Shown here: positions 5,276-48,827 of the stretch, one piece after another
Layout of the letters: each line of letters starts with the position of its first letter
Position numbering within the stretch: the first letter of the stretch is position 1
Assembly: GCA_036677365.1 (NCBI GenBank)
Contig: JAVBWN010000030.1
Span: 89,422-153,421 of the forward strand
DNA from: Acholeplasma sp.
Lineage (GTDB): Bacteria; Bacillota_I; Bacilli_A; Acholeplasmatales; UBA5453
Length of the DNA: 64,000 bases
Direction of reading: 5' to 3'
The notes under the pieces: generated by a model
The model's input: the letters and a program-made list of their open reading frames with translations, nothing else
Told to the model about the DNA's origin: nothing
Database searches by the model: none
Program-made: the position numbers and the translations under genes

Positions 5276-5289
5276 ATTTAAGTCGATAT

Positions 5290-5321
5290 AGGCGCGTGCT
5301 CACGTACGCGCCTTATTATTT
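5290..5321 (+). terminator. Intrinsic terminator after rpoC
   Basis: AGGCGCGTG/TACGCGCCT stem followed by TATTATTT. Confidence 0.65.
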
Positions 5322-5343
5322 ACAATAATTTTGATAAAAATGG

Positions 5344-5372
5344 TTGACATTGAAAACCATAAAAGGTATAAT
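5344..5372 (+). promoter_or_regulatory. Sigma70 promoter of the str operon
   Basis: TTGACA (5344-49), 17-bp spacer, TATAAT (5367-72): perfect consensus. Confidence 0.9.
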
Positions 5373-5492
5373 AAAAACGCTGTAAAAAAGAGTCTCAGCC
5401 CAATTCATTTTGGCCCTTCATAAAGCCAAAATAAATTTTTTGAGAAAAAAAAGAAACACACGGTCATGTGTTAATCTAGAAAGGAGAAAACA

Positions 5493-5960
5493 ATGCCTAC
5501 AATTGCACAACTCGTTAGAGACGGTAGACAAGACAAGGTAACAAAATCTAAAGCCCCATACCTAGGGATTGGATTAAACACGCTTAAGAAGAAAGAAACA
5601 AGTGTTAACTCACCACAAAAACGCGGGGTATGCGTTCGTGTCACTACCATGACACCTAAGAAACCAAACTCAGCGTTACGTAAGTATGCGCGTGTTAGAT
5701 TATCTAACGGTATCGAAGTCAACGCGTACATTCCAGGTGAAGGACATTCACTACAAGAACACAGCGTCGTCCTTATCCGTGGTGGTCGTGTTAAAGACCT
5801 ACCAGGGGTTAGATACCACATCGTTCGTGGCACATTAGATACTTCTGGTGTTGCTAACCGTAAACAAGCCCGTTCAAAATACGGTGCTAAACGTCCTAAA
5901 GCGATTCCAGCAGGAAAAGCACCAGCAGGAAAAACCGCTACACCAGCAAAGAAAAAATAA
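5493..5960 (+). CDS. rpsL: 30S ribosomal protein S12
   Basis: [30 protein letters not shown]. Confidence 0.99.
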
Positions 5961-6495: not shown

Positions 6496-8565
6496 ATGCC
6501 TCGTGAATTTCCTTTAAATAAGACTCGTAATATCGGTATTATGGCCCATATTGACGCGGGTAAAACAACAACTACAGAACGCATTCTATTCCACACTGGT
6601 AAAATCCACAAAATGGGTGAAACACACGATGGTGCATCCCAAATGGACTGGATGGAACAAGAACAAGAACGCGGTATTACGATCACATCAGCAGCTACCA
6701 CTGCTTATTGGAGAGGTCACCGTATTAACGTCATCGATACCCCAGGGCACGTCGACTTCACGGTTGAAGTTCAACGTAGCTTAAGAGTATTGGACGGCGC
6801 TGTTACAGTTCTAGATGCACAAGCTGGCGTAGAGCCACAAACAGAAACCGTTTGGAGACAAGCGACTGAATATAAAGTCCCACGTGTCATTTTCGTCAAT
6901 AAGATGGATAAGACTGGTGCTGATTTCTTCTATTCAATCAAAACCATCCACAACCGTTTAGGGGTTAAGGCTTCCCCTATCCAAATTCCAATTGGATCTG
7001 AAACATTCTTTGAAGGGATCATCGACATCGTGTCGATGAAAGCATACCATTTCGATGGTAACGCAGAAGAAAATTCAACTGAAATTGCTATCCCTGAAAA
7101 GTTAATGGACATTGTTAAACAAAAGAGAATTGAACTCATTGAAGCGGTTGCTGAATTTGATGAAGACATGATGGTTGCATACCTTGATGGTGAAGAAATT
7201 TCTCCTGAGGTATTAAAAGGTGCCATCCGTAAGGGTACCCTTTCCGTTGAATTCTTCCCAGTCATCTGCGGTTCTGCTTTCAAAAACAAAGGCGTTAAGT
7301 TGATGCTAGACGCAGTCGTAGATTATCTACCTGCACCTACCGACATCGCTGACGTTGTTGGTCACGATGAACACGGTCAAGAAATGCACCGTGCAACCGA
7401 TGACTCACAACCATTCACTGCGCTTGCTTTCAAAGTTATGACAGACCCATTCGTTGGCCGTCTAACATTCTTTAGAATATATGCAGGTACAGTTCAACAA
7501 GGTTCATACATCTTGAATACCACCAAAGGTAAGAGAGAACGTCTAGGCCGCTTGCTACAAATGCATGCGAACCATAGAGAAGAAATCAAAGAGGCTTACG
7601 CGGGCGATATCGCTGCAGCGATTGGTCTTAAAGATACAACCACAGGGGATACACTTGCGAGTGAAAAAGATACCATTATCCTTGAATCCATGAAGTTCCC
7701 TGAACCTGTTATTAACATCGCGATCGAACCAAAAACCAAGAACGACCAAGACAAGATGTCTAATGCGTTAACAAAACTTGCTGAAGAAGACCCAACTTTC
7801 CGTGTATTTACCGATAAAGAAACTGGTCAAACCATCATCGCTGGTATGGGTGAATTACACCTTGATATCATCGTTGACCGTATGAGAAGAGAATTTAAGG
7901 TAGAAGCAAACGTGGGTGCACCACAAGTTTCTTACCGTGAAACCATCACAGGTACTGCCGATATTGAAGGTAAATTCATCCGTCAATCCGGTGGTAGAGG
8001 TCAATATGGTCACGTTTGGATCAAGTTTGAACCAAACCCTGGCAAAGGCTTCGAATTCGTGGATGCTGTCGTGGGTGGTACTGTGCCTAGAGAATACATT
8101 GGCGTTGTCCAAAAAGGTCTTGAAGAAGCACTACCTAACGGTATCTTGGCTGGTTACCCAGTCATGGACGTTAAAGCGACATTATTCGATGGGTCCTACC
8201 ATGATGTCGACTCCTCAGAAATGGCTTATAAGATTGCTGCTGCCATCGCACTTAAAGGTGCTAAAGACAAATGTGGCGCAACCATCCTTGAACCAATCAT
8301 GAAAGTCGAAATCGTTGTACCAGATGAATATGTTGGTAACGTCATTGGTGACATCACTTCCCGTAGAGGTCGCCTTGAAGCACAAGAATCTAGAGGTAAC
8401 GCGATTGGTATTAAAGCGAACGTTCCACTATCTGAAATGTTCGGTTACGCTACCGCATTACGTTCTAACTCACAAGGTCGTGCAACATTCGTGATGCAAT
8501 TCGACCACTACGAAAGAGCACCGAAGTCCATCGCTGAAGAAATCATCAAGAAGCGTAACGCCTAG
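6496..8565 (+). CDS. fusA: Elongation factor G
   Basis: [27 protein letters not shown]. Confidence 0.99.
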
Positions 8566-14221: not shown

Positions 14222-16657
14222 ATGAGAAGGATTATTGCACTGCTATTATCGATTGCAGGATTGATTACAGCGGGCATCATTGCTTATCAACACGGCGCAT
14301 TCAACAATATGGATTTCGTTCTATACTATGCCATCATAATGGCGTTTTTTGGCGCGATTGTCGTATCGATTGAATTTATTTTAAACCACAACCGTAAACA
14401 AAAGATCAAATCGCTCAATGCCCGATTGACCGCGTGGTCGAGTTTGTCATACCATGTGAAGCAAATTGGCGATGAAGCCTTTAATGAACTACCCATTGGG
14501 ATTTTTCTTTATGACAACGATAATTTCACAGTCAAATGGAGTAACCCATTCGCCAATAAAATTTTCGGTTTTGACATCGAAAACGCCTTGGTTGGTCAAC
14601 TTCATGAAAGCTTAGGTAGTTTGATTAAAGACCAAGCATCGGTGACCACATTTGCTGTAGGGGATAAGCGTTATGACGCCATCAGCAGCAAGAATAACCA
14701 AGCTGTTTATTTGTTTGATGTGACTTCTCGTGAAGATATCAAAGACAAATACCTCAAACGATCCACCGCATTCGGTGTCATTTATCTCGATAACGTTGAA
14801 GAAGCATTGTCGGGATTCGATATTTATGAAAAATCCAATATCCGCGGTGAATATCTAGGGATCATCACCGACTGGATTCAAGAACACAAAGGGTATATTA
14901 AATTGTATACCGAAGACCGCATGACCATTGCTATGCACTATGAAGAACTACAAAAAGTGATGGCCAATAAATTTGAAATATTGAACCGCATTCGTGAGGT
15001 GTCAGCAAAACACCGCATCCGTATTTCAGCGTCCATCGGGATTGCCTGTTGGGAAGTTTCATTCGAAGAGTTGGGGACACTCGCTCAAAATGCCATTGAA
15101 CTCGCCGAAAAACGTGGTGGGGACCAAGCGGTTGTCAATATTCAAAATGAGAAGATCGCTTACTTCGGTGGTAAATCCAACGCTTCTGAAAAGAGTTCAA
15201 GGGTACACGTTCGTATTCAATCACAAAACTTTAGAGAACTCATCGAAGCATCCTCTAACGTCGTCATCATGGGCCATAAGTTTGCGGATATCGATGCTTT
15301 AGGTGCAATGATTGGGGTCTTTAAAATGGCTTCTGCTTCTAAAAAAGAAGTGAAGATCGTATTTGACATCCCTGAAGTGGACAACACCGTTAAAAAAATC
15401 GTGCCATACTTAAAAGAAGAATCACCACATTTATACACACAACTCGACGAGTCCAAGAATATTTTAAAATTCATGAACAATGACACCTTACTTGTCATCG
15501 TCGACACACAATCACCCAACATCGTCGCCAATCAAGAAGTATACAAACAAGCGAAGAAAATCGCATGTATTGACCACCACAGACATGGTGAAAATACGTT
15601 TGAATCGATTTTTACTTATGTAGAACCATACGCATCATCCTCCGTTGAGTTGGTCGCAGAAATGATGGAGTTTTATCAAAAAGACATCGATTTATTACCC
15701 ATTGAAGCAACCATCATGTATGGTGGAATCATCGTCGATACCAACGAATTCTCCTATCGAACCGGGACCAGAACGTTTGGTGCAGCCGCTTATTTGAAAG
15801 AACATGAAGCCTCTTCTGTACGTGTCAAAGAGTGGTTAAGACTCGATTTGGACCGCACATTATTGATCAACGAATTACTCAATAATGTTCAAGTCGTTAC
15901 CAAAGGATTTGCTGTGGTCGTAGATGAGTCAAATGTGGTTAGAGACCGTGTTTTACTTGCCCAAACATCACAAAAAATCCTTGAGATTGAAGGTGTGAAG
16001 GCAGGCTTTACGATTGCGAGGGTCGATGAGGAATCGATTGGTATTTCCGCACGCAGTTATGATGAAATAAACGTCCAAATCATCATGGAAGAATTGGGCG
16101 GTGGCGGTCACTTGAACAGTGCTGCTACACAAATTAAAAATCAAACGATTCCAGAAGTGTTTGAATCGTTGAAGACGTTGCTCTTAAGAGAACACGAAGA
16201 GGGAGATGAAAGAATGAAAGTAATATTAACAGAAGACGTTAAAGGCAGAGGTAAAAAGGACGACATCATCGATGTAGCGAATGGCTATGGTACATTCCTA
16301 CTATCTTCAAGTAAAGCAATCCTTGCTTCGGATGAAAATATCAAAGCCATCGAAAAAGAAAAACAACTCATCAAAGAACGCGAAGCTGAACACCTCGCCC
16401 TTATGAATAAGTTGAAACAAGAAATTGAATCCAAATCCGTCAACATCTTTATCAATATTGGTAATGATGGGAAATTGTTCGGTAGTGTAACCACCAAACA
16501 AATCGTCGAATCTTTTGAAGAACAAACCGGCATCCGATTGGATAAGAAGAAAGTTGAATTGACCTCCGAAATCAACTCTGTCGGTATTTATACAGCAACC
16601 GTATCGTTACACAAGGAAGTTAAAGCACAATTTGAAATCAATGTATTAGAGAAATAA
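14222..16657 (+). CDS. GdpP-type c-di-AMP phosphodiesterase (2TM-PAS-degenerate GGDEF-DHH/DHHA1) fused in frame to ribosomal protein L9
   Basis: GGDQA, GHKFADIDALG, IDHHR, GGGGH; L9 begins at M665 (MKVILTEDVKGRGKK, GKLFGSVT). Confidence 0.93.
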   Translation: MRRIIALLLSIAGLITAGIIAYQHGAFNNMDFVLYYAIIMAFFGAIVVSIEFILNHNRKQKIKSLNARLTAWSSLSYHVKQIGDEAFNELPIGIFLYDNDNFTVKWSNPFANKIFGFDIENALVGQLHESLGSLIKDQASVTTFAVGDKRYDAISSKNNQAVYLFDVTSREDIKDKYLKRSTAFGVIYLDNVEEALSGFDIYEKSNIRGEYLGIITDWIQEHKGYIKLYTEDRMTIAMHYEELQKVMANKFEILNRIREVSAKHRIRISASIGIACWEVSFEELGTLAQNAIELAEKRGGDQAVVNIQNEKIAYFGGKSNASEKSSRVHVRIQSQNFRELIEASSNVVIMGHKFADIDALGAMIGVFKMASASKKEVKIVFDIPEVDNTVKKIVPYLKEESPHLYTQLDESKNILKFMNNDTLLVIVDTQSPNIVANQEVYKQAKKIACIDHHRHGENTFESIFTYVEPYASSSVELVAEMMEFYQKDIDLLPIEATIMYGGIIVDTNEFSYRTGTRTFGAAAYLKEHEASSVRVKEWLRLDLDRTLLINELLNNVQVVTKGFAVVVDESNVVRDRVLLAQTSQKILEIEGVKAGFTIARVDEESIGISARSYDEINVQIIMEELGGGGHLNSAATQIKNQTIPEVFESLKTLLLREHEEGDERMKVILTEDVKGRGKKDDIIDVANGYGTFLLSSSKAILASDENIKAIEKEKQLIKEREAEHLALMNKLKQEIESKSVNIFINIGNDGKLFGSVTTKQIVESFEEQTGIRLDKKKVELTSEINSVGIYTATVSLHKEVKAQFEINVLEK
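16214..16657 (+). CDS. rplI: 50S ribosomal protein L9 moiety (possible internal start)
   Basis: In-frame ATG 16214 preceded by GGAG (16202-05); full-length L9 sequence. Confidence 0.8.
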   Translation: MKVILTEDVKGRGKKDDIIDVANGYGTFLLSSSKAILASDENIKAIEKEKQLIKEREAEHLALMNKLKQEIESKSVNIFINIGNDGKLFGSVTTKQIVESFEEQTGIRLDKKKVELTSEINSVGIYTATVSLHKEVKAQFEINVLEK

Positions 16658-36068: not shown

Positions 36069-38885
36069 TTAGTTTTGATGAGGGAAACTTGTCCACCAGT
36101 CACCATAAATCTCATTGAATTCGACATTGTCAAAGACATAGGAGAAGAATTGGTCTTGGTTGATTTGAACTAATCTTTCAGCTTTAGCGTTGTTTGCAGC
36201 GCTTGCAAAGTTGTAGTTAGTTGAATCTAACAATCTATATAGTAAGTTTAATTGGTTTTGAGAACCCGTGTACTTAGCATAGATTGGAGCGAAGTATGCA
36301 GTGATTGCAGTAGATACGCTTGAAGGTAAGTTTTCAACACCGTATTCAGAATCTTTTTCATTTAAGTAAATTTGAATTTGATTAGCAGAAATTGCATCGG
36401 TATCACTATAGGCATTTAGGTAATACTTGTTACCTTCAGCATCTGTGTATTCGATTCTTTCATAAATCATGTATTCATCGGTATCTTTAGCTTTAGAGTC
36501 ATCATCAGCAGTAAATTTAGCGCTGCTAGCAACAGATCCACCTGTAGCTAAGATTAAGTGCCAACCGAATGCAGTTTCTAATACTTGCGCATAGTCTGCT
36601 GGGGAAGCTTGTAACCATTGGCTAGGGAAACTCTTGTTTGCGTCGTATTCAGCTCTAACTTGTGCATAAATTTCTTTTGCACCTGCATAGAATGCGTCAT
36701 CTAATTTAGATGTAGAACCGATGGTATTTGTGGAGTTAGTAATTGCGGATAAGTTTTCAAACTTGAGGTTCAAACCAGCCGCTTTATAGGATGACCATCT
36801 GCATTCTGCAGTGACATCTAGTGGTGGAACTGTACAAGATTGAGGTGCAATTCTACCTGCAGTATTGAATTCTTCAACAATGGCATTTAAACCAGTTGAA
36901 ATCGAAGAATAAGTCAATGCTCTGTCGTGGATTAATACCATGAATTCAACCAATAAGTCTTGGAAGTCAGCTAATTTAGCAGCATCTAATGTTTCGAAGT
37001 ATTCAGAAGGATCATCTGGTTTATCGTCTTCATTCATATCGATATAAACCAATAAATGAGAGGATGATAATGAGAAGAATTGGTCTCTTAAGCGGTTTGC
37101 ATAATCAGCGAAAGTCGCATAAATGGTATCACCGTATTGTGCTTCAAGGTCTTTGAGGTAAGCATCTTCTAATGCAGCAGCGACATAAACGTTTTGAATT
37201 GCTTCATCGATTGATGTTGCACGGAATGCCAACATTAAGAAGTTCTTTCTACCCATCGAAGCTGGATATCCAGACGATGCGTAGTAGTCTTGACCAAATT
37301 GTTTGATGATGGTTTCAATATTCTTACGATATTCAGCTCTCTTTTCAGCTGTAATGGTATCAACATAATCAGAAGCTTTCAATGTTTGACGGATAGCCAT
37401 ATCGATTGCTACTGAGACGCCAAGTCTCTTTTCAAGTTGTGCGTAGAATGCATCTACAGTGATGTCGTTACCCTCAACTTTTGCAATTAAAGTCTTGCTG
37501 GATTTAGAAGCAAGTTTAACTTCCTTAAAGCTTTGAGCTAAGTATAGTTGAACAAGTTCGTCATAAATAACGATATCAGCTTTATTAAGTCTTTCAGTTG
37601 CCTTGGTGGAGATATAAGAGGTTGTAAGTTTAGCTTCTAATACTTTGTCATAAATTTCTTCTGCTTTTTCAGTCAATTGACCAGCTTCATCATAGACGAT
37701 GAAATTCTTGTCTTCATCCATCCACTCTAAAACGGCTTCATTGTGGTCTTTAAGCTTGTAAACTAAGAAGTAGTTAGAACCACTTAAGCGTGGGCTTGCT
37801 GTAAATCTGGTTTCACCTTCAGCGGTTCCAAGTGTGTTGTAAATATAAGTACGTAGGCTTGTGTTTGTGAAGTCTTCATAAGCTCTTGTAAATGGAACGT
37901 TGTCCAAATCAGCTAGAATGCCATCAACAGTGTAGTTTGTATTTACTTGATCACGGAAACTGTAGATATAGTTGTAAATTTCTAAGAATTTGACGAGTGT
38001 TTCATCTTGTGTTAATGCAACATCGGAATCAGAACCCGCATCTGGATTGATGGAGTATTTGTCGTAGTATTTACGATAATCTGCTTCACTGATTGAACCA
38101 GTATTTGAGATACCAAGTTCAGTTAATGTTGTTGCTGCACGTCCAGTTACCACACTTACTCTTGGGTCTTGGAGTACATATAATTGGCTTCTATAAGCCT
38201 TTAAGTTAAATCTACGTAATGTTGCGTTTGCTTCATTAAGGTTTACGAAACGAATGGTGATTGCACTCACATCGTAATTGTTTTTAACGTTGTTGTTAAA
38301 GTAAGTAGCTAGATCTTTGTCGATGTTGATAAAGCTTGTAGATTTGCTGTCTTTAACTTCTTCAATAAGAAGGGTTCTTGCATAAATCTTTTTAGCAACG
38401 TTAAGTTTGTAGTAGTCTAGAATATCAGAACTGTGGTTTTCAAAGTCAACGATGTCGATATCGCCTTCTGCAACAGTTGAGTTAGCTAGATAGAATGAAT
38501 CCACGAATGATTTCACTTTTGTGCTAATCGTTTTCGCATCATATTCTTTAAGTGTTTCTATATCTGAAGTACCGAAAATCGCTTCATTAGCAAACTTGAC
38601 TAAATCTTCTGCATAAGTTGCAGGGTTTGCTTCGATTAGGGCTAGTTCTTCGGCATATAAGATCTTTTCAATCATTTCGACTAAGACTGAAGAACTACTT
38701 AGACGCATCTCTTGATACAATTCTTTTTCAGTGATGCTGTATCCGTCTCCACTTAGATAGACCGTGTTTCCAAGGCTACCGTAAGGGGTGGATAAGGATT
38801 TGCTGCCGCATGCGGCAAGCGTAACTGCAAAAGTCGTAAGTAGGACTAAAGCAGCTAATTTCTTAATGAGATTAGTTTTATTCAC
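36069..38885 (-). CDS. Large lipoprotein; tandem PrsA/parvulin-like foldase
   Basis: GTG start after AAGGAGTG; lipobox LAAC; parvulin motifs SSHLLV and ETAFGWHLI; two PrsA-N-like segments. Confidence 0.7.
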   Translation of the reverse strand: MNKTNLIKKLAALVLLTTFAVTLAACGSKSLSTPYGSLGNTVYLSGDGYSITEKELYQEMRLSSSSVLVEMIEKILYAEELALIEANPATYAEDLVKFANEAIFGTSDIETLKEYDAKTISTKVKSFVDSFYLANSTVAEGDIDIVDFENHSSDILDYYKLNVAKKIYARTLLIEEVKDSKSTSFINIDKDLATYFNNNVKNNYDVSAITIRFVNLNEANATLRRFNLKAYRSQLYVLQDPRVSVVTGRAATTLTELGISNTGSISEADYRKYYDKYSINPDAGSDSDVALTQDETLVKFLEIYNYIYSFRDQVNTNYTVDGILADLDNVPFTRAYEDFTNTSLRTYIYNTLGTAEGETRFTASPRLSGSNYFLVYKLKDHNEAVLEWMDEDKNFIVYDEAGQLTEKAEEIYDKVLEAKLTTSYISTKATERLNKADIVIYDELVQLYLAQSFKEVKLASKSSKTLIAKVEGNDITVDAFYAQLEKRLGVSVAIDMAIRQTLKASDYVDTITAEKRAEYRKNIETIIKQFGQDYYASSGYPASMGRKNFLMLAFRATSIDEAIQNVYVAAALEDAYLKDLEAQYGDTIYATFADYANRLRDQFFSLSSSHLLVYIDMNEDDKPDDPSEYFETLDAAKLADFQDLLVEFMVLIHDRALTYSSISTGLNAIVEEFNTAGRIAPQSCTVPPLDVTAECRWSSYKAAGLNLKFENLSAITNSTNTIGSTSKLDDAFYAGAKEIYAQVRAEYDANKSFPSQWLQASPADYAQVLETAFGWHLILATGGSVASSAKFTADDDSKAKDTDEYMIYERIEYTDAEGNKYYLNAYSDTDAISANQIQIYLNEKDSEYGVENLPSSVSTAITAYFAPIYAKYTGSQNQLNLLYRLLDSTNYNFASAANNAKAERLVQINQDQFFSYVFDNVEFNEIYGDWWTSFPHQN

Positions 38886-39048
38886 AATGTTCACTCCTTG
38901 AATTTTAATCACAAGCACTATTAATATAACACACATATATAGGGTTTGCAATCGTTTTTATGTGTTTTCACAATCTCACACAAAAGCCTTAATATGAAAT
39001 ATTAGGTATTTAGGTTGGGCTTCATGTTATAATGGTTTTGGTGATATT

Positions 39049-40429: not shown

Positions 40430-41068
40430 ATGTATCAATATGTTATTTGGGATTTCAATGGCACCATTTTGGATGATTTAGATTTATGTCTAGACCTTCT
40501 AAATCAAATGCTTATAAAACAAGCCAAACCAGTTTTATCTGTTGAAGCATATAAAAATGTTTTTGGGTTTCCTATCAAAGACTATTATATTCAAGCTGGA
40601 TTGACCTTTGATGTGATGTCTTTTGATGAACTAAGTCAATTTTTCATCGAAAGGTATCAACCAGCCAGTTTTCATTGCAAGATTCACTCGGGTGTAATTG
40701 AAACTTTGAATCAGTTGGAATACTTAGGTATCAAGAGTATAATTCTATCGGCCTCACAAACCGATAATTTAATTGAACAAACCAAAGTACTTAAAATCTA
40801 TGATTTCTTTGAACACATCATCGGAACTGACAACATCAAAGGTCAAGGTAAGGTTGAACGTGGCATTCAATTCATGAAGTCTTCCAACATCGATCCGAAC
40901 GTCTGTATTTATGTTGGAGATACCATACACGACGCAGAGGTTGCCAAGGCTTTAGGTGTAAAAGTGTTGTTATACGCAGGCGGGCATCAATCAGAAAGCC
41001 GTTTAAGAACAGCAAATGAAAGAATTATTTATGATTTTAATGATATAATTAACGTTATAAAGGGGTGA
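40430..41068 (+). CDS. HAD-family hydrolase
   Basis: WDFNGT motif I, LSAS, K, GDTIHD. Confidence 0.88.
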   Translation: MYQYVIWDFNGTILDDLDLCLDLLNQMLIKQAKPVLSVEAYKNVFGFPIKDYYIQAGLTFDVMSFDELSQFFIERYQPASFHCKIHSGVIETLNQLEYLGIKSIILSASQTDNLIEQTKVLKIYDFFEHIIGTDNIKGQGKVERGIQFMKSSNIDPNVCIYVGDTIHDAEVAKALGVKVLLYAGGHQSESRLRTANERIIYDFNDIINVIKG

Positions 41069-41076
41069 ATTTTGTA

Positions 41077-41544
41077 ATGAAATTCCTTAAAGGTTTTAAA
41101 GCGTTCGTAAGTCGCGGTAATGTTTTAGACTTGGCTGTTGGGGTCATCATGGCTACAGCCTTTGGTAAGATTGTTTCATCCATGATCAATGATATTTTAT
41201 TCCCACTGATTGCAGCACTTTTAGGTGAAGCCGATTTTAAGGACCTCGTTTGGCGTGTTCGCGAAATTGGTACTGATGTCACTACAGGGAATCCGATTTA
41301 TGCCACAGTAAAATATGGTAACTTTATACAAGTTACATTTGAGTTCTTATTGATAGCCTTATTCATTTATATCGTCATCGTTCAAATCGTTAAAGGTCAA
41401 GCTAAAAAAGAACGATTAGCTGAAGAAGAAAGAATTAAAAAAGAAGAGGAAGCAAAACAAAACCCTCAACCAGTTGTAAAACCAGAAGACATCTTATTAC
41501 TAGAAGAAATTAGAGACTTGTTAAAGAAAAATAGCACGAAGTAA
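41077..41544 (+). CDS. mscL: Large-conductance mechanosensitive channel
   Basis: FKAFVSRGNVLDLAVGVI, YGNFI, LLEEIRDLLK. Confidence 0.96.
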   Translation: MKFLKGFKAFVSRGNVLDLAVGVIMATAFGKIVSSMINDILFPLIAALLGEADFKDLVWRVREIGTDVTTGNPIYATVKYGNFIQVTFEFLLIALFIYIVIVQIVKGQAKKERLAEEERIKKEEEAKQNPQPVVKPEDILLLEEIRDLLKKNSTK

Positions 41545-41571
41545 AGTGCTTTTTTCATAGGAGGATTTAAA

Positions 41572-42465
41572 ATGGATTTCGAACTCTTTAAACAGAAAAT
41601 TTATGATCAAGGTCGAGATTTAGAAGTGGCGATATTCAATACACTTTTTGAAAACGATGACAGATCAATGGTCGCGTATGCATTATCAATATATCAAAAT
41701 AAAGATGGTGGTTTTGGTCATGGTTTAGAACCAGACTCAACAAATCCTAACTCATCCCCATTTCAAACATCGGTTGCACTTGAGATATTGGTTGATGTTG
41801 GATTTCGTGATAACAATCTTGATGAATACACCAAAGACCTTGTGAACCGTGCCTTTAAATATTTAGTAAAAACCATGAATGATGATTTGTGGCCAGCCAC
41901 CATACCATCAAACAATGATTTTCCATGTGCTGTTTGGTGGATGCATGATCCTAACAAAACGCAAACCATCAACCCAACTGGAAGCATTTTAGCATCCACC
42001 ATATTGCTTGCTAATAAAAATACATCGGGATACAAATCAGCACTCGCGATGGCTACAAAGCATATTCAAGCATATTTGAATACCCCTTGTCATGAAAAAC
42101 ATGAGCTTGCTGTACTTGCAAGACTATACCATGCTTTAAAAGAAGAAGAACCTCAATTTGAATTATTGTCACAGTTCAAAGAAAAACTATTCAAAGAGAT
42201 TCAAACATCCATTGACCCGGTGGATGCCTGGGAAGGCTATGCCACATTCCCTTTTGACTTTCCTCTTGACGATGAAAACTATGGCATAGATTCTAAAGTG
42301 ATTCAAGCGTCATTGGCGTATTTAAAGAAAACCTTAAGAACAAATTATTGGGAACCGTCATGGCAATGGTATAAGGACGAAGACACTTTTGAAATTCAAT
42401 CGATTAAATGGCATGGTATATTGATTAATAAATTCTTATCGTACATCTCACATATTCAAAAATAG
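41572..42465 (+). CDS. Hypothetical protein with prenyltransferase/squalene-cyclase-like repeat
   Basis: YQNKDGGFGHGLEPD; AGGAGG RBS. Confidence 0.6.
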   Translation: MDFELFKQKIYDQGRDLEVAIFNTLFENDDRSMVAYALSIYQNKDGGFGHGLEPDSTNPNSSPFQTSVALEILVDVGFRDNNLDEYTKDLVNRAFKYLVKTMNDDLWPATIPSNNDFPCAVWWMHDPNKTQTINPTGSILASTILLANKNTSGYKSALAMATKHIQAYLNTPCHEKHELAVLARLYHALKEEEPQFELLSQFKEKLFKEIQTSIDPVDAWEGYATFPFDFPLDDENYGIDSKVIQASLAYLKKTLRTNYWEPSWQWYKDEDTFEIQSIKWHGILINKFLSYISHIQK

Positions 42466-42466
42466 A

Positions 42467-42495
42467 TTGTAATTGAATGATTTCTGTGATAATAT
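42467..42495 (+). promoter_or_regulatory. Candidate promoter of the aro/tyr operon leader
   Basis: TTGTAA (42467-72), 17-bp spacer, TAATAT (42490-95) with TG extension. Confidence 0.5.
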
Positions 42496-42521
42496 ATTTT
42501 CAAAAAGAAGGCTTGATTTTA

Positions 42522-42569
42522 ATGCAAAAGACTCAAATTAGATTTTCCTATTACTATTATTATATTTAA
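42522..42569 (+). CDS. Tyr-rich leader peptide MQKTQIRFSYYYYYI (putative attenuator peptide)
   Basis: ATG CAA AAG ACT CAA ATT AGA TTT TCC TAT TAC TAT TAT TAT ATT TAA; GAAGG RBS 10 nt upstream; precedes the tyrosine biosynthesis operon. Confidence 0.85.
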   Translation: MQKTQIRFSYYYYYI

Positions 42570-42636
42570 GGGAATGCAAACACATTCCTTTTTATTGGTG
42601 AACATAATAGGAAATGTGCTAATTGATGAACTTCTT

Positions 42637-42664
42637 ATCCTTAGGACATTCCTAAGGATTTTTT
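42637..42664 (+). terminator. Attenuator (conditional intrinsic terminator) upstream of DAHP synthase
   Basis: ATCCTTAGGA-CAT-TCCTAAGGAT followed by TTTTT, 22 nt before the start codon. Confidence 0.85.
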
Positions 42665-42686
42665 CATTTTTAAGGAGAGAAAAACC

Positions 42687-43709
42687 ATGATTGTACAAAT
42701 GAAACCCCAAGCAACAAAAGAACAATTTAAACGCATTTCTGATTTTTTAGTGTCCAAAGGTTTTGGTATCAAAGATGCATCCTCTGAAACCAACATCGTA
42801 TTCGGTATCATTGGCGATACCAAAAGTTTAAACCCAACAGATTTAGAAGCATTTGAAGGTGTATTCCAAGTCACTCGTGTATCTACACCTTACAAACTGG
42901 CAAGTCGATCATTTAAGAGAGAAGACACCATCATCAAAGTTGGCAAAGACATTCTCATTGGTGGGGATCAGTTTGTTGTGATGGCAGGTCCATGTTCGAT
43001 TGAATCATTCGAAAATACGGATGAGATTGCAAAAGCAGTTAAAGCATCAGGTGCGAGAATTTTACGTGGTGGTGCATTCAAACCAAGAACCAGTCCGTAT
43101 GCCTTTCAAGGTATGGGCTTAGAGGGTTTAAAGATCATGCGTGAGGTTGCAGATAAGTACGATTTAGCCATCGTGTCTGAAATCATGAGTGAAGATATGA
43201 TTGAAGCATTTGAACCTTATGTGGATATTTATCAATTAGGGGCACGCAATATGCAAAACTTCCACTTGCTAAAACAATTGGGTGCGAGAACGAAAAAACC
43301 TATTCTATTGAAACGTGGATTATCAGCAACCATCGAAGAGTGGTTGATGAGTGCTGAATACATTATGGCATCCGGAAATGAAAATGTAATCCTTTGTGAA
43401 CGTGGCATTCGTACGTTTGAAAAATATACCAGAAATACATTAGACATCAGCGCAGTATTGGCGATTAAAGAATTATCACACTTACCAGTCATCATTGACC
43501 CTTCTCATGCTGCTGGTAAGTATTCAATGATTGAAAAACTATCCATGGCAAGTTATGCTGTGGGAGCGGATGGACTCATTGTTGAAGTACACCCTGACCC
43601 AGAACATGCGATGAGTGATGGTGCACAATCACTAAAACTCGAAAAGTTTGATCACATGATGCAAGAGTTGAACAAACTTTCGGATGTCCTTGAAAAGAAA
43701 ATCAAATGA
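42687..43709 (+). CDS. aroF: DAHP synthase, type I-beta with N-terminal regulatory (ACT-like) domain
   Basis: AGPCS, GGAFKPRTSPY, KRG, CERGIR, DPSH. Confidence 0.95.
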   Translation: MIVQMKPQATKEQFKRISDFLVSKGFGIKDASSETNIVFGIIGDTKSLNPTDLEAFEGVFQVTRVSTPYKLASRSFKREDTIIKVGKDILIGGDQFVVMAGPCSIESFENTDEIAKAVKASGARILRGGAFKPRTSPYAFQGMGLEGLKIMREVADKYDLAIVSEIMSEDMIEAFEPYVDIYQLGARNMQNFHLLKQLGARTKKPILLKRGLSATIEEWLMSAEYIMASGNENVILCERGIRTFEKYTRNTLDISAVLAIKELSHLPVIIDPSHAAGKYSMIEKLSMASYAVGADGLIVEVHPDPEHAMSDGAQSLKLEKFDHMMQELNKLSDVLEKKIK

Positions 43710-44524
43710 GAGTCTTTATAGCGGGATTGGGCCTTATTGGGGGAAGTTACGCTGAAGGGTTAACTCAAAAAGGCTATGAAGTATACGGTTATAACCGTAC
43801 GAAAGAATCTGAAAAAATTGCCATTGAAAGAGGCTATATTAAAGACGCAGGACTAAAATATCTACCACTCTGTGAAGTGGTTGTTTTAGGTTTCTATCCT
43901 CAGCTGAATGTAACATTTTTGAATGATATCAAAAATGATTTAAGACCAGGACAAATCATCACGGATGTTGCAGGAACCAAAGTGGAGATGATACCTCAAA
44001 TCGAAGCATTACTACCTGCGTATGTGCATTATGTATCACACCATCCGATGGCAGGTAGAGAAACGAAAGGTATCGAACGAGCGGATTGCAACATGTTTAA
44101 AGGTGCGAACTTTTTGATCACGCCTTCAAAACACGCCACACCAGAAGCGATTGAAATCATCAAGCAAATGGGTAGAGACTTAGAGTTCAGAAAAATAACA
44201 GTCATCGATCCAAAGCGACATGACCAGTTGATTGGATTTACTTCACAATTACCGCATGCTATGGCAGTTGCTTTAGTTAACAGTGACACCTACGAGGAAA
44301 CCTCTAGCTTTACTGGGGATTCATTTAGAGACTTAACAAGAATCGCGATGATCAATGAAGTCTTATGGACTGAACTTTTTTTTGAAAATAAAACCATTTT
44401 GATTGAAGAGATAGAAAAATTTGAAAGCGAACTAGACAAGATAAAACAAGCATTGAATGAGAATGATAAGGATGCTTTAGCAAAAATGTTCATTCAGTCG
44501 ACAAAGAAAAGGAGTGGTTTCTAA
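43706..44524 (+). CDS. tyrA: Prephenate dehydrogenase
   Basis: GLGLIGGS, DVAGTK, HPMAGRE, HD..S.LPH, FRDLTRIA. Confidence 0.93.
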   Translation: MRVFIAGLGLIGGSYAEGLTQKGYEVYGYNRTKESEKIAIERGYIKDAGLKYLPLCEVVVLGFYPQLNVTFLNDIKNDLRPGQIITDVAGTKVEMIPQIEALLPAYVHYVSHHPMAGRETKGIERADCNMFKGANFLITPSKHATPEAIEIIKQMGRDLEFRKITVIDPKRHDQLIGFTSQLPHAMAVALVNSDTYEETSSFTGDSFRDLTRIAMINEVLWTELFFENKTILIEEIEKFESELDKIKQALNENDKDALAKMFIQSTKKRSGF

Positions 44525-45567
44525 TGAGAATACAAATGCCGCTAGCTAATCATGCATATGATATATTATTAGACCACAAAGCGATTTTACAGTTACCAGA
44601 TGAAATTAGAAACTTTCATAAAGGCGATAAAATTTACATCATTACAGATCGGAATGTAGACCGTCTTCATCATCATTTAATCCAAGGTATTTTAAAGGAT
44701 TTTTCATTAAATTTTGTGGTGGTTGAACCTGGTGAATCCTCTAAATCTTTTCAAGTCTATGAATCCGTGATTGATCAACTAATTCAACACGGGATGAAAC
44801 GAACAGATTTGTTGATTGCTTTTGGTGGGGGAGTCATCGGTGATTTAGGTGGATTCGTAGCATCCACTTTATATCGAGGTGTCCCTTATATTCAAATACC
44901 AACCACACTGCTTGCACAAGTTGATTCATCTGTAGGCGGGAAAACGGCTATAAATAGCAGTAAAGGTAAAAATATGGTGGGTACATTTTATCAACCAAAA
45001 CTTGTCATCATTGACCCTGATTTTCTAAAAACATTACCTGATTTCGAATATAAAAACGGTATGGCTGAAGTGATTAAATCGGCATATATTGGCGATGTAG
45101 TATTACAAGATAAATTACTCAAAGGTCAAATAAGGACGCTTGAGATGATTGAACGATCCATTCTAGTTAAGAAAAACGTAGTACTCGTCGATGAATTCGA
45201 TTTGAATGAACGTATGTATTTGAATTTCGGACATACATTTGGACATGCACTCGAAAAACAGAGCAACTATGAGATTGCACACGGTTATGCTGTGGCTGAA
45301 GGCATGCTCATGGCTATTCATATTGGTGAACGCTTAGGTATTACACCTAAAACGATATTTAAAAGTTTAAAACTATTATTAGAAAAGTATGATTTAGGGT
45401 TATTGAATACAAATCCTGTGCCACTCATTGACGATATTTTCTATGACAAGAAAAACACCCATGGGCAATTGAAGATGGTATTCTTAAGTGATATTGGGAA
45501 ACCAATGATTCAACCAATTACTAAGGAGGTACTGTATGAATGTTATCATTCACAAACCTCTAAGTGA
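44524..45567 (+). CDS. aroB: 3-dehydroquinate synthase
   Basis: GGGVIGD, PTTLLAQVDSSVGGKT, LNFGHTFGHA. Confidence 0.97.
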   Translation: MRIQMPLANHAYDILLDHKAILQLPDEIRNFHKGDKIYIITDRNVDRLHHHLIQGILKDFSLNFVVVEPGESSKSFQVYESVIDQLIQHGMKRTDLLIAFGGGVIGDLGGFVASTLYRGVPYIQIPTTLLAQVDSSVGGKTAINSSKGKNMVGTFYQPKLVIIDPDFLKTLPDFEYKNGMAEVIKSAYIGDVVLQDKLLKGQIRTLEMIERSILVKKNVVLVDEFDLNERMYLNFGHTFGHALEKQSNYEIAHGYAVAEGMLMAIHIGERLGITPKTIFKSLKLLLEKYDLGLLNTNPVPLIDDIFYDKKNTHGQLKMVFLSDIGKPMIQPITKEVLYECYHSQTSK

Positions 45568-46798
45568 GGGCAATATTGAAGTTGTACCAAGCAAATCAAT
45601 CACACACCGTGCACTGATCGCTGCCGCATTAGCACATGGAAGAAGTCTCATTAAAAGACCATTAGAGTCTGAGGATACAGAAGCAACCATCGATATGTTA
45701 AGAGCACTTGGTGTTACGATTACAAAGACCACTGAAGGCATCATTGTTGAGTCCAATGGTATTCAAAAACCATCAAGAATTTTGTTCGCAAATGAATCTG
45801 GATCTAGTTTAAGATTCTTAGTACCAGTTGCACTTACGGTAGACACTGAAGTGACCTTTGATGGCAAACCAGGCTTACGAAAAAGACCCATTTCAGAGTA
45901 CTTAAGGGTATTTGACCAAATGGGCATCAAATATCGCCAATTTGATGAAAATTTACCCCTTGAAATTAAGGGTCAATTGGTCCCTGGTGAATATAGAATT
46001 TCAGGTAGTATTTCTAGTCAATTTGTGACTGGTCTATTGTATGCTTTACCACTACTTAAAAGTGACTCAAAACTGATTTTAGAGACACCCCTAGAATCAA
46101 AGGATTATGTCGATATGACGATATCAATTCAACGTCAGTTCGGTGTTGAAATTGAACCAATTCAAGAGGGATATTTTATCAAGGGAAATCAAAAGTATTG
46201 TGAAAAAACGTTTGAAGTATCAGGTGACTTTTCACAGGCTGCGTTCCACATTGTTGCAGGAATTTTAGGTGCAAAATTGAGCCTATCCAAAATTGAGCAA
46301 AACACCCATCAAGCGGACGAAAAAATTCTTGAAATCGTAAAAATGATGGGCGGAGGTATAAAATTCGATAATGGCACAATAGAGCCAAAATCAAGTCAAA
46401 CACATGGTAGAGTAATAGACTTATCACAGTGCCCTGATATAGGACCGATAATGGCTGTACTATGCGCTTTATCGGAAGGTGAGTCACGTATTATTAATGC
46501 ATCTCGACTCAGAATCAAGGAATCTGACCGAATTACAGCCATCACAACTGAGCTAAATAAACTTGGTGCTAAGATTAGTGAGACTAAGGATGGCATGATT
46601 ATTCAAGGTGTTAAAAACTTCAAATCAAATATGAACTTATATTCATGGAATGACCACCGGATAGTCATGGCTTTAGCAATCGCAGCCATCAAAACAGATG
46701 GTCCAATTCGAATTGTTGGTGCAGAAGCTATTAATAAATCCTATCCCACTTTCTTTGAAGATTATGTTAAACTGAAAGGAGAAATATCTTATGAATAA
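45536..46798 (+). CDS. aroA: EPSP synthase
   Basis: SKSITHR, ESGSSLRF, SSQF, LRIKESDR, NDHRI, KSYP. Confidence 0.97.
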   Translation: MNVIIHKPLSEGNIEVVPSKSITHRALIAAALAHGRSLIKRPLESEDTEATIDMLRALGVTITKTTEGIIVESNGIQKPSRILFANESGSSLRFLVPVALTVDTEVTFDGKPGLRKRPISEYLRVFDQMGIKYRQFDENLPLEIKGQLVPGEYRISGSISSQFVTGLLYALPLLKSDSKLILETPLESKDYVDMTISIQRQFGVEIEPIQEGYFIKGNQKYCEKTFEVSGDFSQAAFHIVAGILGAKLSLSKIEQNTHQADEKILEIVKMMGGGIKFDNGTIEPKSSQTHGRVIDLSQCPDIGPIMAVLCALSEGESRIINASRLRIKESDRITAITTELNKLGAKISETKDGMIIQGVKNFKSNMNLYSWNDHRIVMALAIAAIKTDGPIRIVGAEAINKSYPTFFEDYVKLKGEISYE

Positions 46799-47060
46799 AT
46801 TAGAAGAGGCTCGTTTACGTATTGATCAGATAGACCAACAAATGGCTGATCTATTCAAAGCGCGTATGATTGCTGTTATTGATGTACTAGACTACAAAAA
46901 GCAAAATCATCTTCCCGTATTAGATGCAACAAGAGAGATGAAGATGATCGATAAAAATGTAGCTAGATTTAATACACCAGAATTAGAAGCCTATTACAAA
47001 CAATTTCTAAAATCGATTCTTGAGATATCTAGAACTTATCAGGAGGATCATTATGAATAG
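46791..47060 (+). CDS. Chorismate mutase (AroQ/CM_2 type)
   Basis: LEEARLRIDQID, YKK...PVLDATRE; location in the aro operon. Confidence 0.9.
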   Translation: MNKLEEARLRIDQIDQQMADLFKARMIAVIDVLDYKKQNHLPVLDATREMKMIDKNVARFNTPELEAYYKQFLKSILEISRTYQEDHYE

Positions 47061-47844
47061 ATTTGGACTCATCGGTAGAAATATCAGTTATTCATTGTCT
47101 AAAAGAATCCATGAGGGCATCGCTCGTATGAATGGGTATCGTTTGGTTTATGACATTTTTGACTGTGATACAGAATTGGATGTTGTTGCGAGACTAAATT
47201 TATTAAGACAAGGTTCACTCAAAGGCTTGAATGTGACCATCCCATACAAAGAATCGGTGATGCGTTATTGTGACCGCTTAACAGAAACAGCCAAAGAGAT
47301 TGGTGCAGTCAATACATTGTATATGGTAGATAATGAATTGGTAGGCGATAACACCGATTATTATGGTTTCATTAAACTATTGAATTTATACCATGTGAAT
47401 CCTAAAGGTAAAGTATCTTATATTTTAGGTTCAGGTGGTGCCGCTAAAGCAGTGCACTACGCGTTGAAATCTTTAGGTGCGAAAGCTGTCGTGGTCTCAC
47501 GCGATAAGGAAAAGATTAAAGAGCAATTTCAATTGGTTGCTGGTTATGAAGTTTTAGATATTGTTCCTAAGATTGATATCATGGTAAATACAACACCCAT
47601 CGGTACTTCACCTAGAGGTGACCAAATGCCAGTATCCAAAGCCATTGCACAAAAAACAGTGGTGGCTATTGATTTAATCTATAACCCTAAAGAAACCATG
47701 TTTATGAAAACAGCAAGTTTTGGTATTGGTGGTGCTATGATGCTTGTCGGTCAAGCGATGAAATCTCAGGCTATTTGGCTTGATCGTGCTATTGATGAAT
47801 CTAAAGAAGCTTTTGATGCACTTGTAGAGGAGATGCATTCATGA
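47053..47844 (+). CDS. aroE: Shikimate dehydrogenase
   Basis: SLS..IH, NVTIPYK, GAVNT, NTDYYG, GSGGAAKA; start at ATG 47053 after AGGAGG. Confidence 0.94.
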   Translation: MNRFGLIGRNISYSLSKRIHEGIARMNGYRLVYDIFDCDTELDVVARLNLLRQGSLKGLNVTIPYKESVMRYCDRLTETAKEIGAVNTLYMVDNELVGDNTDYYGFIKLLNLYHVNPKGKVSYILGSGGAAKAVHYALKSLGAKAVVVSRDKEKIKEQFQLVAGYEVLDIVPKIDIMVNTTPIGTSPRGDQMPVSKAIAQKTVVAIDLIYNPKETMFMKTASFGIGGAMMLVGQAMKSQAIWLDRAIDESKEAFDALVEEMHS

Positions 47845-48827
47845 ACCATTTTGGTACTTTATTCTCAGTTAATATTTACGGAGAATCCCATGGTAAAGCC
47901 GTTGGCATCGTCATTGATGGTATGACACCAGGTGTCTTTGTGGATGAAAAACTATTGTTATCTGATTTAAATCGTAGGAAAGCTGGTGCCGTTGGGACAA
48001 CCAAAAGAATCGAAGCAGATGAACCGAAAATTATCTCAGGTGTCTATCGTGGATACACCACAGGTGCACCTATTCATGTGATGTTTGAAAATACCAATAC
48101 AAGAAGTGAAGACTATAATAACCTACTAAAACAACCTCGACCTGGGCATGCCGATTTCACCAGTTTTGTGAAATATAAGGGTTTTGCCGATCAACGCGGG
48201 GGCGGTCATTTTTCAGGTAGGCTTACCACAGGTATAGTTGCCGCGGGTTCATTTGCTAAGATGTTACTTAACGTAGCTTTTGAATCGAAACTCGTACGTG
48301 TCGGTGATCTTACAGACATGCATGGCTTAGATGAATATTTACAAGGTATCTCTGAAAGTTTTGATTCGGTAGGCGGCATTGTCGAAGTAAGAGTCCGTAA
48401 CCTTGAAGTTGGTATTGGTGAACCGTTCTTTGATTCGGTTGAGAGTAAAATCGCCCATATGGTATTTTCAGTTCCAGCGATTAAGGGTATCGAATTTGGT
48501 ATTGGTTTTAAAGGCATTGAATTGAGAGGGTCGCAATTCAATGATCCAATCGTAGATGCTAAAGGAAGAACTGAAACCAACCACAATGGGGGATTGAATG
48601 GTGGTATCACCAATGGCAATGAATTGGTAGTACGTGTATTCGTTAAACCAGCATCGAGCATATTCTTAAAACAAGATACATTTGACTTTGAAACGAATTC
48701 TGTACAATCTTTACAAATCGAAGGTAGACATGACGCATGTATCGCTAGACGTGCGGTGGTTGTCATTGAAAATGCGATTGCGATTGCTCTCGCCGATTTG
48801 TATCTTCAAAAAAAATCAAGGGAGTAA
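47841..48827 (+). CDS. aroC: Chorismate synthase
   Basis: GESHG, RPGHAD, GGHFSGRLT, GRHD. Confidence 0.97.
   Translation: MNHFGTLFSVNIYGESHGKAVGIVIDGMTPGVFVDEKLLLSDLNRRKAGAVGTTKRIEADEPKIISGVYRGYTTGAPIHVMFENTNTRSEDYNNLLKQPRPGHADFTSFVKYKGFADQRGGGHFSGRLTTGIVAAGSFAKMLLNVAFESKLVRVGDLTDMHGLDEYLQGISESFDSVGGIVEVRVRNLEVGIGEPFFDSVESKIAHMVFSVPAIKGIEFGIGFKGIELRGSQFNDPIVDAKGRTETNHNGGLNGGITNGNELVVRVFVKPASSIFLKQDTFDFETNSVQSLQIEGRHDACIARRAVVVIENAIAIALADLYLQKKSRE

Follow-up and report, generated by a model that had tools for sequence, protein, structure and literature searches.

A candidate tyrosine-sensing leader peptide attenuator upstream of the DAHP synthase operon in Acholeplasma

In the enterobacterial leaders trpL, pheL and hisL, consecutive codons for the product amino acid lie in a short translated ORF that has its stop codon at the first hairpin, and a chain of mutually exclusive hairpins leads up to an intrinsic terminator before the first gene; the general mechanism of such leader-peptide attenuation is as given in the passages devoted to it in PMC9413887 and in the review PMC11802643. 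Here we describe an element from a 64,000-nucleotide (nt) stretch of Acholeplasma sp. DNA (contig JAVBWN010000030.1, positions 89,422 to 153,421; this whole stretch is hereafter called the window), where a gap of 221 nt separates an open reading frame (ORF) of 297 aa and no known family (41572–42465) from the gene for DAHP synthase (aroF, starting at 42687). The gap holds a leader ORF with its own Shine-Dalgarno (SD) sequence and start codon, a cluster of Tyr codons matching the product of the operon, and a terminator before the first gene. Judged from its sequence and its relatives, we consider it likely, and with good confidence, that this element is a ribosome-mediated, tyrosine-sensing leader-peptide transcription attenuator.

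The closest described element is the candidate motif uORFC-13-1 (Brewer et al. 2021, RNA Biol 18:2417, PMC8632094), which was derived from genome 13 of that study, Acholeplasma laidlawii PG-8A. According to the passages on this motif, its 24 representatives come only from Acholeplasma and environmental sequences and lie exclusively upstream of aroF, immediately before an intrinsic terminator; it comprises −35 and −10 boxes, a ribosome binding site, a start codon, a U-run and one further supported paired substructure, and translation of the upstream ORF (uORF), via the speed of phenylalanine incorporation, was suggested to control the terminator (PMC8632094). We compared 17 Acholeplasma-like aroF loci (L001–L017) with 63 others, mostly from other Firmicutes, and the element of the window shares with uORFC-13-1 the taxonomic confinement (17/17 Acholeplasma-like loci, 0/63 others), the position before aroF, putative promoter boxes, a ribosome binding site, a start codon and the terminator. 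Matched to the verbal description, the U-run would be CATTCCTTTT and the paired substructure would be the first hairpin, formed by the segments called B and C below. We infer, purely from this agreement in description, that the window element is a member of the uORFC-13-1 motif. As published, the motif is read as sensing phenylalanine, and the passages on it contain neither a Tyr run nor a scheme of alternative hairpins and draw no connection to tyrA; tyrosine is mentioned once in the text, as a product of the pathway (PMC8632094). No match to uORFC-13-1 exists in Rfam 15, and a full-text literature search found it mentioned in no other paper. An earlier note on this DNA, written from the sequence, had known of no described Tyr leader-peptide attenuator in Mollicutes; an Acholeplasma-only motif before aroF, read as Phe-sensing, had in fact been published in 2021. 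The candidate motif and the textbook class of mechanism are known already, and no new mechanism class is involved; the tyrosine reading and the wiring of the hairpins are the likely new points.

The element differs from the enterobacterial leaders in being without sequence relationship to them (no Rfam match), in the amino acid that it would sense, tyrosine, in its wall-less, Firmicutes-derived host, and in an antiterminator whose 3' arm reaches beyond the terminator 5' arm to take in the loop and a portion of the 3' arm. The parity of its proposed relay, with B:C and D:terminator paired on stalling and C:D and E:F paired on full translation, is that of the six-segment his leader. The leu/phe leader of Lactococcus is an example of a leader-peptide attenuator in Firmicutes. 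His-codon leaders have furthermore been predicted in the Bacillus cereus group, Peptostreptococcaceae and Erysipelotrichales (in the relevant passages of PMC9413887), and a Leu-rich attenuator peptide is reported for Staphylococcus aureus (PMC5794164). These show that ribosome-mediated attenuation occurs alongside T-boxes in this phylum; they differ from the window element in amino acid and operon, are unrelated in sequence, and none comes from Acholeplasmatales. In the aroR leader of Corynebacterium glutamicum (Neshat et al. 2014, as cited in the review), a DAHP synthase operon is likewise preceded by a short peptide rich in aromatic codons, and ribosome stalling is employed. Its codons read Phe-Tyr-Phe and, as the section on it in the review states, it responds to limitation for Phe and not Tyr (PMC11802643); it belongs to another phylum and no relationship is claimed. 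Beyond Phe-Tyr-Phe aroR, the full-text search found no Tyr-run leader in print, a search that left subscription journals uncovered, so that an earlier mention is possible. PMC2659441, considered as a source on tyrA and attenuation, merely cites an E. coli paper.

Searched at gathering score, Rfam 15 gave no family in the whole window or in 11 Acholeplasma-like loci, and at E-values up to 10 the region 42300–42800 returned spurious matches only, with no T-box and no amino acid leader family. The top match in the region, driven by the terminator, was to the model of an unrelated sRNA from Enterococcus, with 26.1 bits (E 0.36) where the cut-off is 52. In three of the 11 non-Acholeplasma loci sampled, a T-box (RF00230, 120–127 bits) stands directly before aroF, ending 52–125 nt from it: L018 from Catenibacterium (5715–5949), L071 from Coprobacillaceae (5720–5949) and L042 from Sellimonas (5629–5876). 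The specifier of the L018 T-box is probably UUC, for Phe. T-box leaders have in common with the window element the place before aroF and a terminator that is, or for the window element would be, overridden when the cognate tRNA is uncharged, and differ from it in binding tRNA directly, without translation. The contrast with T-boxes drawn in the earlier note thus holds: in Acholeplasmatales a putatively translated leader stands where relatives have a T-box.

All elements of the leader lie on the forward strand. A putative promoter at 42467–42495 (TTGTAA at 42467–72, a spacer of 17 nt, TAATAT at 42490–95, and TG at 42487–88) would place the transcription start nearby, and a promoter-like arrangement TTGT...TG(T/A)GATA was seen by eye upstream in 17 relatives. 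The SD-like AGAAGG (42506–42511) lies 10 nt ahead of the ATG of the uORF (42522–42569), which runs over 15 codons to a TAA at 42567–69 and encodes MQKTQIRFSYYYYYI; the proposed sensing codons are the five consecutive Tyr codons TAT TAC TAT TAT TAT at 42549–42563. Within the uORF, segment A (42544–42553) is complementary in 10 of 10 positions to 42605–14, with which it would pair when free of ribosomes. Segment B (42568–42576) begins inside the stop codon and forms the 5' arm of the first hairpin, and segment C (42583–42591), within the stretch CATTCCTTTT (42583–92), has B or D as alternative partners. Segment D (42605–42629) can pair with A through 42605–14, with C through 42609–18, or, through 42608–29, with 42635–54 in an antiterminator hairpin of 18 bp (42608–42654), whose 3' arm is made up of almost the entire terminator 5' arm, the loop and the first five bases of the terminator 3' arm. 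The pairings of D with A, C and the terminator are mutually exclusive, because the partners overlap on the same bases of D. The intrinsic terminator (42637–42664) has a 10-bp stem (42637–46/42650–59, its arms E and F spanning 42637–59), a CAT loop and a T-run at 42660–64, and is followed by the SD sequence of aroF (AAGGAG, 42672–77).

A scan for terminator-like hairpins returned the one at 42637–42659 (10 pairs, 4 of them G-C, loop of 3, tail TTTTTCATTT) and a second one at 42568–42591 with 9 pairs, which starts within the uORF stop codon; five such sites were observed in 2 kb against 1.2 ± 1.0 in shuffles. The repeat search gave 10/10 complementarity for both 42544–53/42605–14 and 42637–46/42650–59, complementarity over 9 nt (89%) for 42568–76/42583–91 and over 15 nt (80%) for 42581–95/42604–18, as well as the exact direct repeat of 8 nt ACATTCCT at 42582–89 and 42646–53, which is common to C and to the antiterminator 3' arm because both compete for D. 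By these searches, every feature of the earlier note lies where it had been placed, including the mini-ORF with its ribosome binding site and five Tyr codons, the terminator with its U-tract and the exact complement between uORF and D; the bulged pairing 42608–17/42646–54 that it had named proved to be part of the antiterminator hairpin.

The arrangement departs clearly from what would be expected by chance. The 191-nt leader folds at −46.7 kcal/mol, compared to −30.3 ± 3.3 kcal/mol in 200 shuffles (z −4.97), and none of the 200 folded as well. Across all six frames of the window, three runs of exactly three Tyr codons and one of five occur, the latter being the sole run of at least four, where 200 second-order Markov simulations gave an expectation per 64 kb of 0.015 runs of at least five and 0.205 of at least four.

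The DAHP synthase of the window is 99% identical to that of L001, a Bacillota metagenome-assembled genome (MAG), 65–86% identical to those of L002–L017 (records of Acholeplasma, Mariniplasma and Acholeplasmataceae) and 51–59% identical to those of the remaining 63 loci. In all 17 Acholeplasma-like loci a uORF of 13–16 codons, started by ATG and preceded by an SD sequence, is found at −162 to −195 from aroF, in the same position and frame, with Tyr codons clustered near its end; a purine-rich SD-like stretch (consensus AAAGGTGAT) precedes each ATG. The uORFs hold 2–5 Tyr each (75 of 250 codons over the 17 loci), TAT and TAC replace one another, and the residues outside the Tyr run vary, as exemplified by the peptides of L002 (MLSIHRSISYYYYYQN), L004 (MIHLNSYYYFYHM), L006 (MFKYKKAVYYYAYH), L008 (MKFIQTYYYYYNLK), L010 (MLMINKAGYYYYYTS) and L014 (MLIDRIVMNTYRYYHL). 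A Leu or Ile reading in other frames was rejected, as the start codon is missing in 16/17 loci for the former (+2) and in 13/17 for the latter (+1). The geometry is equally constant, with the first Tyr codon of the cluster 18–24 nt before the stop codon and the stop codon −3 to +3 nt from the first base pair of B:C throughout; termination at this stop codon would therefore force the ribosome to open B:C, which a ribosome stalled at the first Tyr codons could leave intact. Among the 63 other loci, ORFs of up to 40 aa in the 500 nt upstream never had three Tyr in a row, and in 10 of the 63 some such ORF had three aromatic residues in a row. The search for a conserved Tyr-run mini-ORF in related genomes, proposed in the earlier note as a check, thus turned out in its favor and backs its core reading of a Tyr mini-ORF controlling the terminator before aroF and tyrA, with uORF, frame, SD, stop codon and terminator kept in 17/17 loci.

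Segments B, C, D and the terminator arms share an AAGGA/UCCUU core, and each is able to pair with its neighbor. In duplexes computed sequence by sequence, B:C amounts to −10.3 to −14.1 kcal/mol and C:D to −9.5 to −13.9 kcal/mol over the 17 loci, and D:terminator, present in all of them, to −9.1 to −16.6 kcal/mol. The corresponding values in the window are −9.1 kcal/mol for the B:C hairpin (42568–91; z −5.0), −8.9 kcal/mol for C:D (42581–89 with 42609–18; z −2.2), −14.7 kcal/mol for the antiterminator (z −3.5, 1 of 200 shuffles as good), −13.0 kcal/mol for the terminator (42637–59; z −4.9) and −22.5 kcal/mol for the compound stem of A:D plus B:C (42544–42614; z −5.3); at −14.7 versus −13.0 kcal/mol, antiterminator and terminator compete. 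The ten bases CATTCCTTTT are invariant in 17/17 loci and lie after the uORF stop codon in each, an invariance that the double duty of C, pairing with both B and D, can explain. Given its U-rich tail, for which the scan called it terminator-like, the B:C hairpin may furthermore be a pause site.

The terminator hairpin with its T-run is present in 17/17 loci. In alignment A2 its arms pair in 97.6% of cells, both-sided changes occur at 6 of its 10 pairs, and the observed covariation score was reached by 0 of 500 shuffles. For the antiterminator, the support from covariation is moderate. Cognate D:terminator duplexes are 3.4–5.1 kcal/mol better than non-cognate ones in four of six lineage groups. 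The 4-bp antiterminator helix 42619–22/42641–44 is paired in 75% of alignment cells, with one change on both sides (C-G to U-A) in 3 sequences of one lineage; column 91 of A2, in the terminator 5' arm, changes in concert with both of its partners, the one in the terminator and the one in the antiterminator, which makes a three-way covariation, yet a single event. MAFFT does not bring the uORF starts or the D region of different lineages into register, and the column-based pair counts cover the terminator and this one helix only, C:D and the main antiterminator helix being assessed by the per-sequence duplexes; RNAalifold on the whole-leader alignment recovers only part of B:C plus the terminator. 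The A:D pairing is lineage-specific in sequence: on the uORF side the Phe-Ser-Tyr-Tyr codons take part in the window, L004, L008 and L011 use the Tyr codons themselves, and L006, L009 and L017 use Ala-Val codons against AACAGC; the pairing is weak or replaced in L010 and L012–L016. In L013–L015, segment D is predicted to pair with the SD region of the uORF and not with the Tyr codons. Of the pairing scheme in the earlier note, both named pairings hold, and the exact complement has equivalents built from different sequences in other lineages; the scheme lacked the universally conserved competitor 42581–89/42609–18, and its uORF:D pairing is lineage-specific.

From these elements a switch can be proposed that would sense charged tRNA-Tyr and regulate the unit aroF-tyrA-aroB-aroA-chorismate mutase-aroE-aroC. 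Transcription from a promoter near 42467–95 would yield a leader of about 160 nt, and a ribosome would translate the 15-codon uORF while RNA polymerase advances, the latter possibly being held first at the B:C hairpin and its U-rich tail, which would couple both machines. When tyrosine is short, the ribosome would stall on the Tyr codons at 42549–63, at most 18 nt before the stop codon, covering A and not B; B:C could then form and D would be left free to zip with the emerging terminator 5' arm, the loop and the first half of the 3' arm, so that the antiterminator (42608–42654) would block the terminator and the operon would be transcribed. When tyrosine is plentiful, the ribosome at the stop codon would cover B and C:D would pair, and on its release A:D and B:C would re-form; D would be occupied in both cases, the terminator would form, and transcription would end near 42664. 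An untranslated leader, in which A:D, B:C and the terminator could all form, would likewise terminate.

Several results weigh against this reading, among them the equilibrium folds of the full leader. With a ribosome footprint masked at the first, second or last Tyr codon or at the stop codon, the terminator keeps a probability of 0.87–0.97 under every mask in 16/17 loci, and L010 alone drops, to 0.35; the folding of the leader with the uORF constrained or free, another check suggested by the earlier note, thus did not give the anticipated loss of the terminator. The switch can therefore only be kinetic. In the classical trp leader the terminator is likewise the more stable structure, and the equilibrium result does not, for this reason, refute attenuation. 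When the transcript was cut 6 nt before the terminator end, a cruder approach than co-transcriptional simulation, a ribosome placed at the first Tyr codon gave more pairing of the terminator 5' arm with D than one placed at the stop codon in 14/17 loci (in the window 0.75 and 0.53, respectively, and 0.05 without a ribosome), and C:D pairing rose with the ribosome at the stop codon in 16/17; L002, L008 and L012 went the opposite way in the former comparison, and many of the differences are modest.

On the same side of the balance, the cognate D:terminator test fails in two of the six groups, G2 (L004, L005, L007) and G4 (L011), the z-scores for D:terminator after shuffling D are merely −0.2 to −3.7, and the alignment support for the antiterminator amounts to one compensatory event. 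The putative promoter, with 8 of 12 consensus matches, is absent from the promoter-scan list, and transcription starting downstream of the SD sequence would leave the uORF unread. L013–L015 have only 2–3 Tyr codons, split by Arg or His (TYRYHNL, TYRYYHL), and their leaders may carry the switch in a weakened or rewired form; an unrelated chance YYY mini-ORF occurs at −335 in L010. Moreover, the operon also feeds Phe and Trp synthesis, for which control by Tyr only looks risky unless these branches are absent or otherwise fed.

Other explanations can account for parts of these observations. A trans-acting factor, be it an RNA-binding protein, a tRNA or a small molecule, could read CATTCCTTTT or AAGGAA, with the uORF incidental or modulatory; it would fit both the equilibrium folds, which show no ribosome-dependent loss of the terminator, and the invariance of CATTCCTTTT in 17/17 loci although its partners vary, which is more conservation than one helix needs. 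The pairing of C with both B and D explains that invariance as well, Rfam (T-box included) gave no match at E up to 10, and such a factor would leave the SD sequence, the ATG, the frame, the clustering of Tyr and the constant distance from stop codon to hairpin unexplained in all 17 loci, which makes it unlikely. Sensing of phenylalanine instead of tyrosine, by a U-run coding for at least one Phe, was suggested for uORFC-13-1 in the passages cited (PMC8632094), agrees with the response to Phe described for C. glutamicum aroR in the section cited (PMC11802643) and with our own reading of the L018 T-box specifier, and can point to the 13 of 17 uORFs that hold 1–2 Phe codons, in L004 and L005 within the Tyr run (YYYFY). 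Nevertheless, Phe accounts for just 16 of the 250 uORF codons and is missing from four uORFs (L002, L010, L014, L015), it occupies no conserved position, being residue 2 in many uORFs and residue 8 in that of the window, the invariant U-run falls after the stop codon in 17/17 loci, and the operon has tyrA and not pheA. With the U-run behind the stop codon and the Phe codons not conserved, the sequence data favor Tyr over Phe, and we regard a Phe sensor as quite improbable.

An effect of the uORF on translation or RNA stability, or a role of the terminated leader as a trans-acting small RNA or micropeptide, would do away with an operon sensor altogether. As an RNA of its own, about 160 nt long, the leader is indeed strongly structured and ends at a good terminator, and for the rhizobial trp attenuator trans functions of leader RNAs and leader peptides are on record; however, the peptide is not conserved outside the Tyr run, the element lies directly before aroF and tyrA in 17/17 loci, and a trans function would supplement the cis function and not replace it, leaving this explanation very little probability. 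AT-rich intergenic DNA with TAT repeats beside an ordinary terminator, finally, could produce such a picture by chance, TAT/TAC repeats being of low complexity in DNA of 39% G+C and the chance mini-ORF of L010 being a case in point. The low expectation for such a Tyr run (0.015 per 64 kb), the leader fold (z −4.97) and the retention of the element in 17/17 loci at 65–99% protein identity, together with its absence from 63/63 others, stand against it, and the comparative and Markov tests effectively refute it.

The tyrosine-sensing attenuator thus remains the reading that we prefer. Its boldest form, namely that the element is the first Tyr-specific leader-peptide attenuator, an invention of Acholeplasmatales as a whole that does the job of the T-box through a five-segment relay aimed at the terminator loop and 3' arm, with the published Phe assignment wrong and trans action possible, has in our estimate slightly better than even prospects. 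If true, tyrosine would join the amino acids sensed by leader-peptide attenuation, and the Phe assignment of a candidate motif in the literature would be put right. The locus would furthermore offer a clean case of a translated leader versus a T-box before the same gene in related lineages, a better annotation of Acholeplasmatales genomes, and a compact candidate for a Tyr-responsive switch.

The controlled operon was annotated by Pfam. aroF (42687–43709, + strand) encodes DAHP_synth_1 preceded by an N-terminal DAHP_snth_FXD domain, which is ferredoxin-like; it is followed by tyrA for prephenate dehydrogenase (43706–44524, +), and the order tyrA-aroB-aroA-chorismate mutase-aroE-aroC spans 43706–48827 (+), with a small chorismate mutase and with recG, plsX and rnc after aroC. 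No prephenate dehydratase domain was found among the 54 window proteins chosen from the ORF lists and scanned, in agreement with the earlier note, which had described an operon with tyrA and without this enzyme. Prephenate dehydrogenase is the second gene in 12/12 relatives tested, a comparison from which L005, L006 and L008 (contigs too short) and L015 (nearly identical to L014) were left out. Beyond tyrA, L004, L009 and L013 have the same gene order, and so does L012 over the scanned part of its contig. The closest solved relatives of the DAHP synthase are 1rzm and 3pg9 (full length, E 9e-104), which we take to be the Thermotoga maritima enzyme, whose N-terminal domain presumably mediates inhibition by tyrosine; if so, tyrosine would control the pathway at two levels.

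Upstream of the leader, the neighboring 297-aa ORF (+ strand) matches no Pfam family at E up to 0.01, and this neighbor varies by lineage, being DegV in L004 and MscL in L012. In the window, a short hairpin at 41533–41550, at the end of the mscL gene (41065–41544), was flagged as terminator-like on both strands. The Mariniplasma-like L009 has a divergent pair of genes just upstream of the leader promoter, for a PadR-family regulator (5365–5682, −) and a HAAS-domain protein (4274–5419, −), an arrangement seen by eye also in L006, L010, L016 and L017. The intergenic region shared with these genes contains repeated palindromes of the ACTGTG...CACA type, which may be a separate operator in this lineage and are absent from the window.

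Some observations concern other parts of the DNA compared. In L068, a Bacillota MAG, the DAHP synthase gene is followed at a short distance by a skipping-rope RNA (RF02924, 47.9 bits; 7470–7565). At 14222–16657 (+) of the window, one ORF of 811 aa combines a GdpP-like c-di-AMP phosphodiesterase (PAS, GGDEF-like, DHH, DHHA1) with the N- and C-terminal domains of ribosomal protein L9; the two are usually encoded by adjacent genes, and the ORF may be a real fusion or reflect a stop codon that was lost or missed. A 960-aa ORF (36069–38951, −) has no Pfam match at E up to 1e-5. The rpoC ORF (1157–5275, +; 1372 aa), which starts 4 nt after the end of rpoB, has its first Pfam domain only from residue 179, which suggests that either the protein carries about 175 additional N-terminal residues or its start was called too far upstream.

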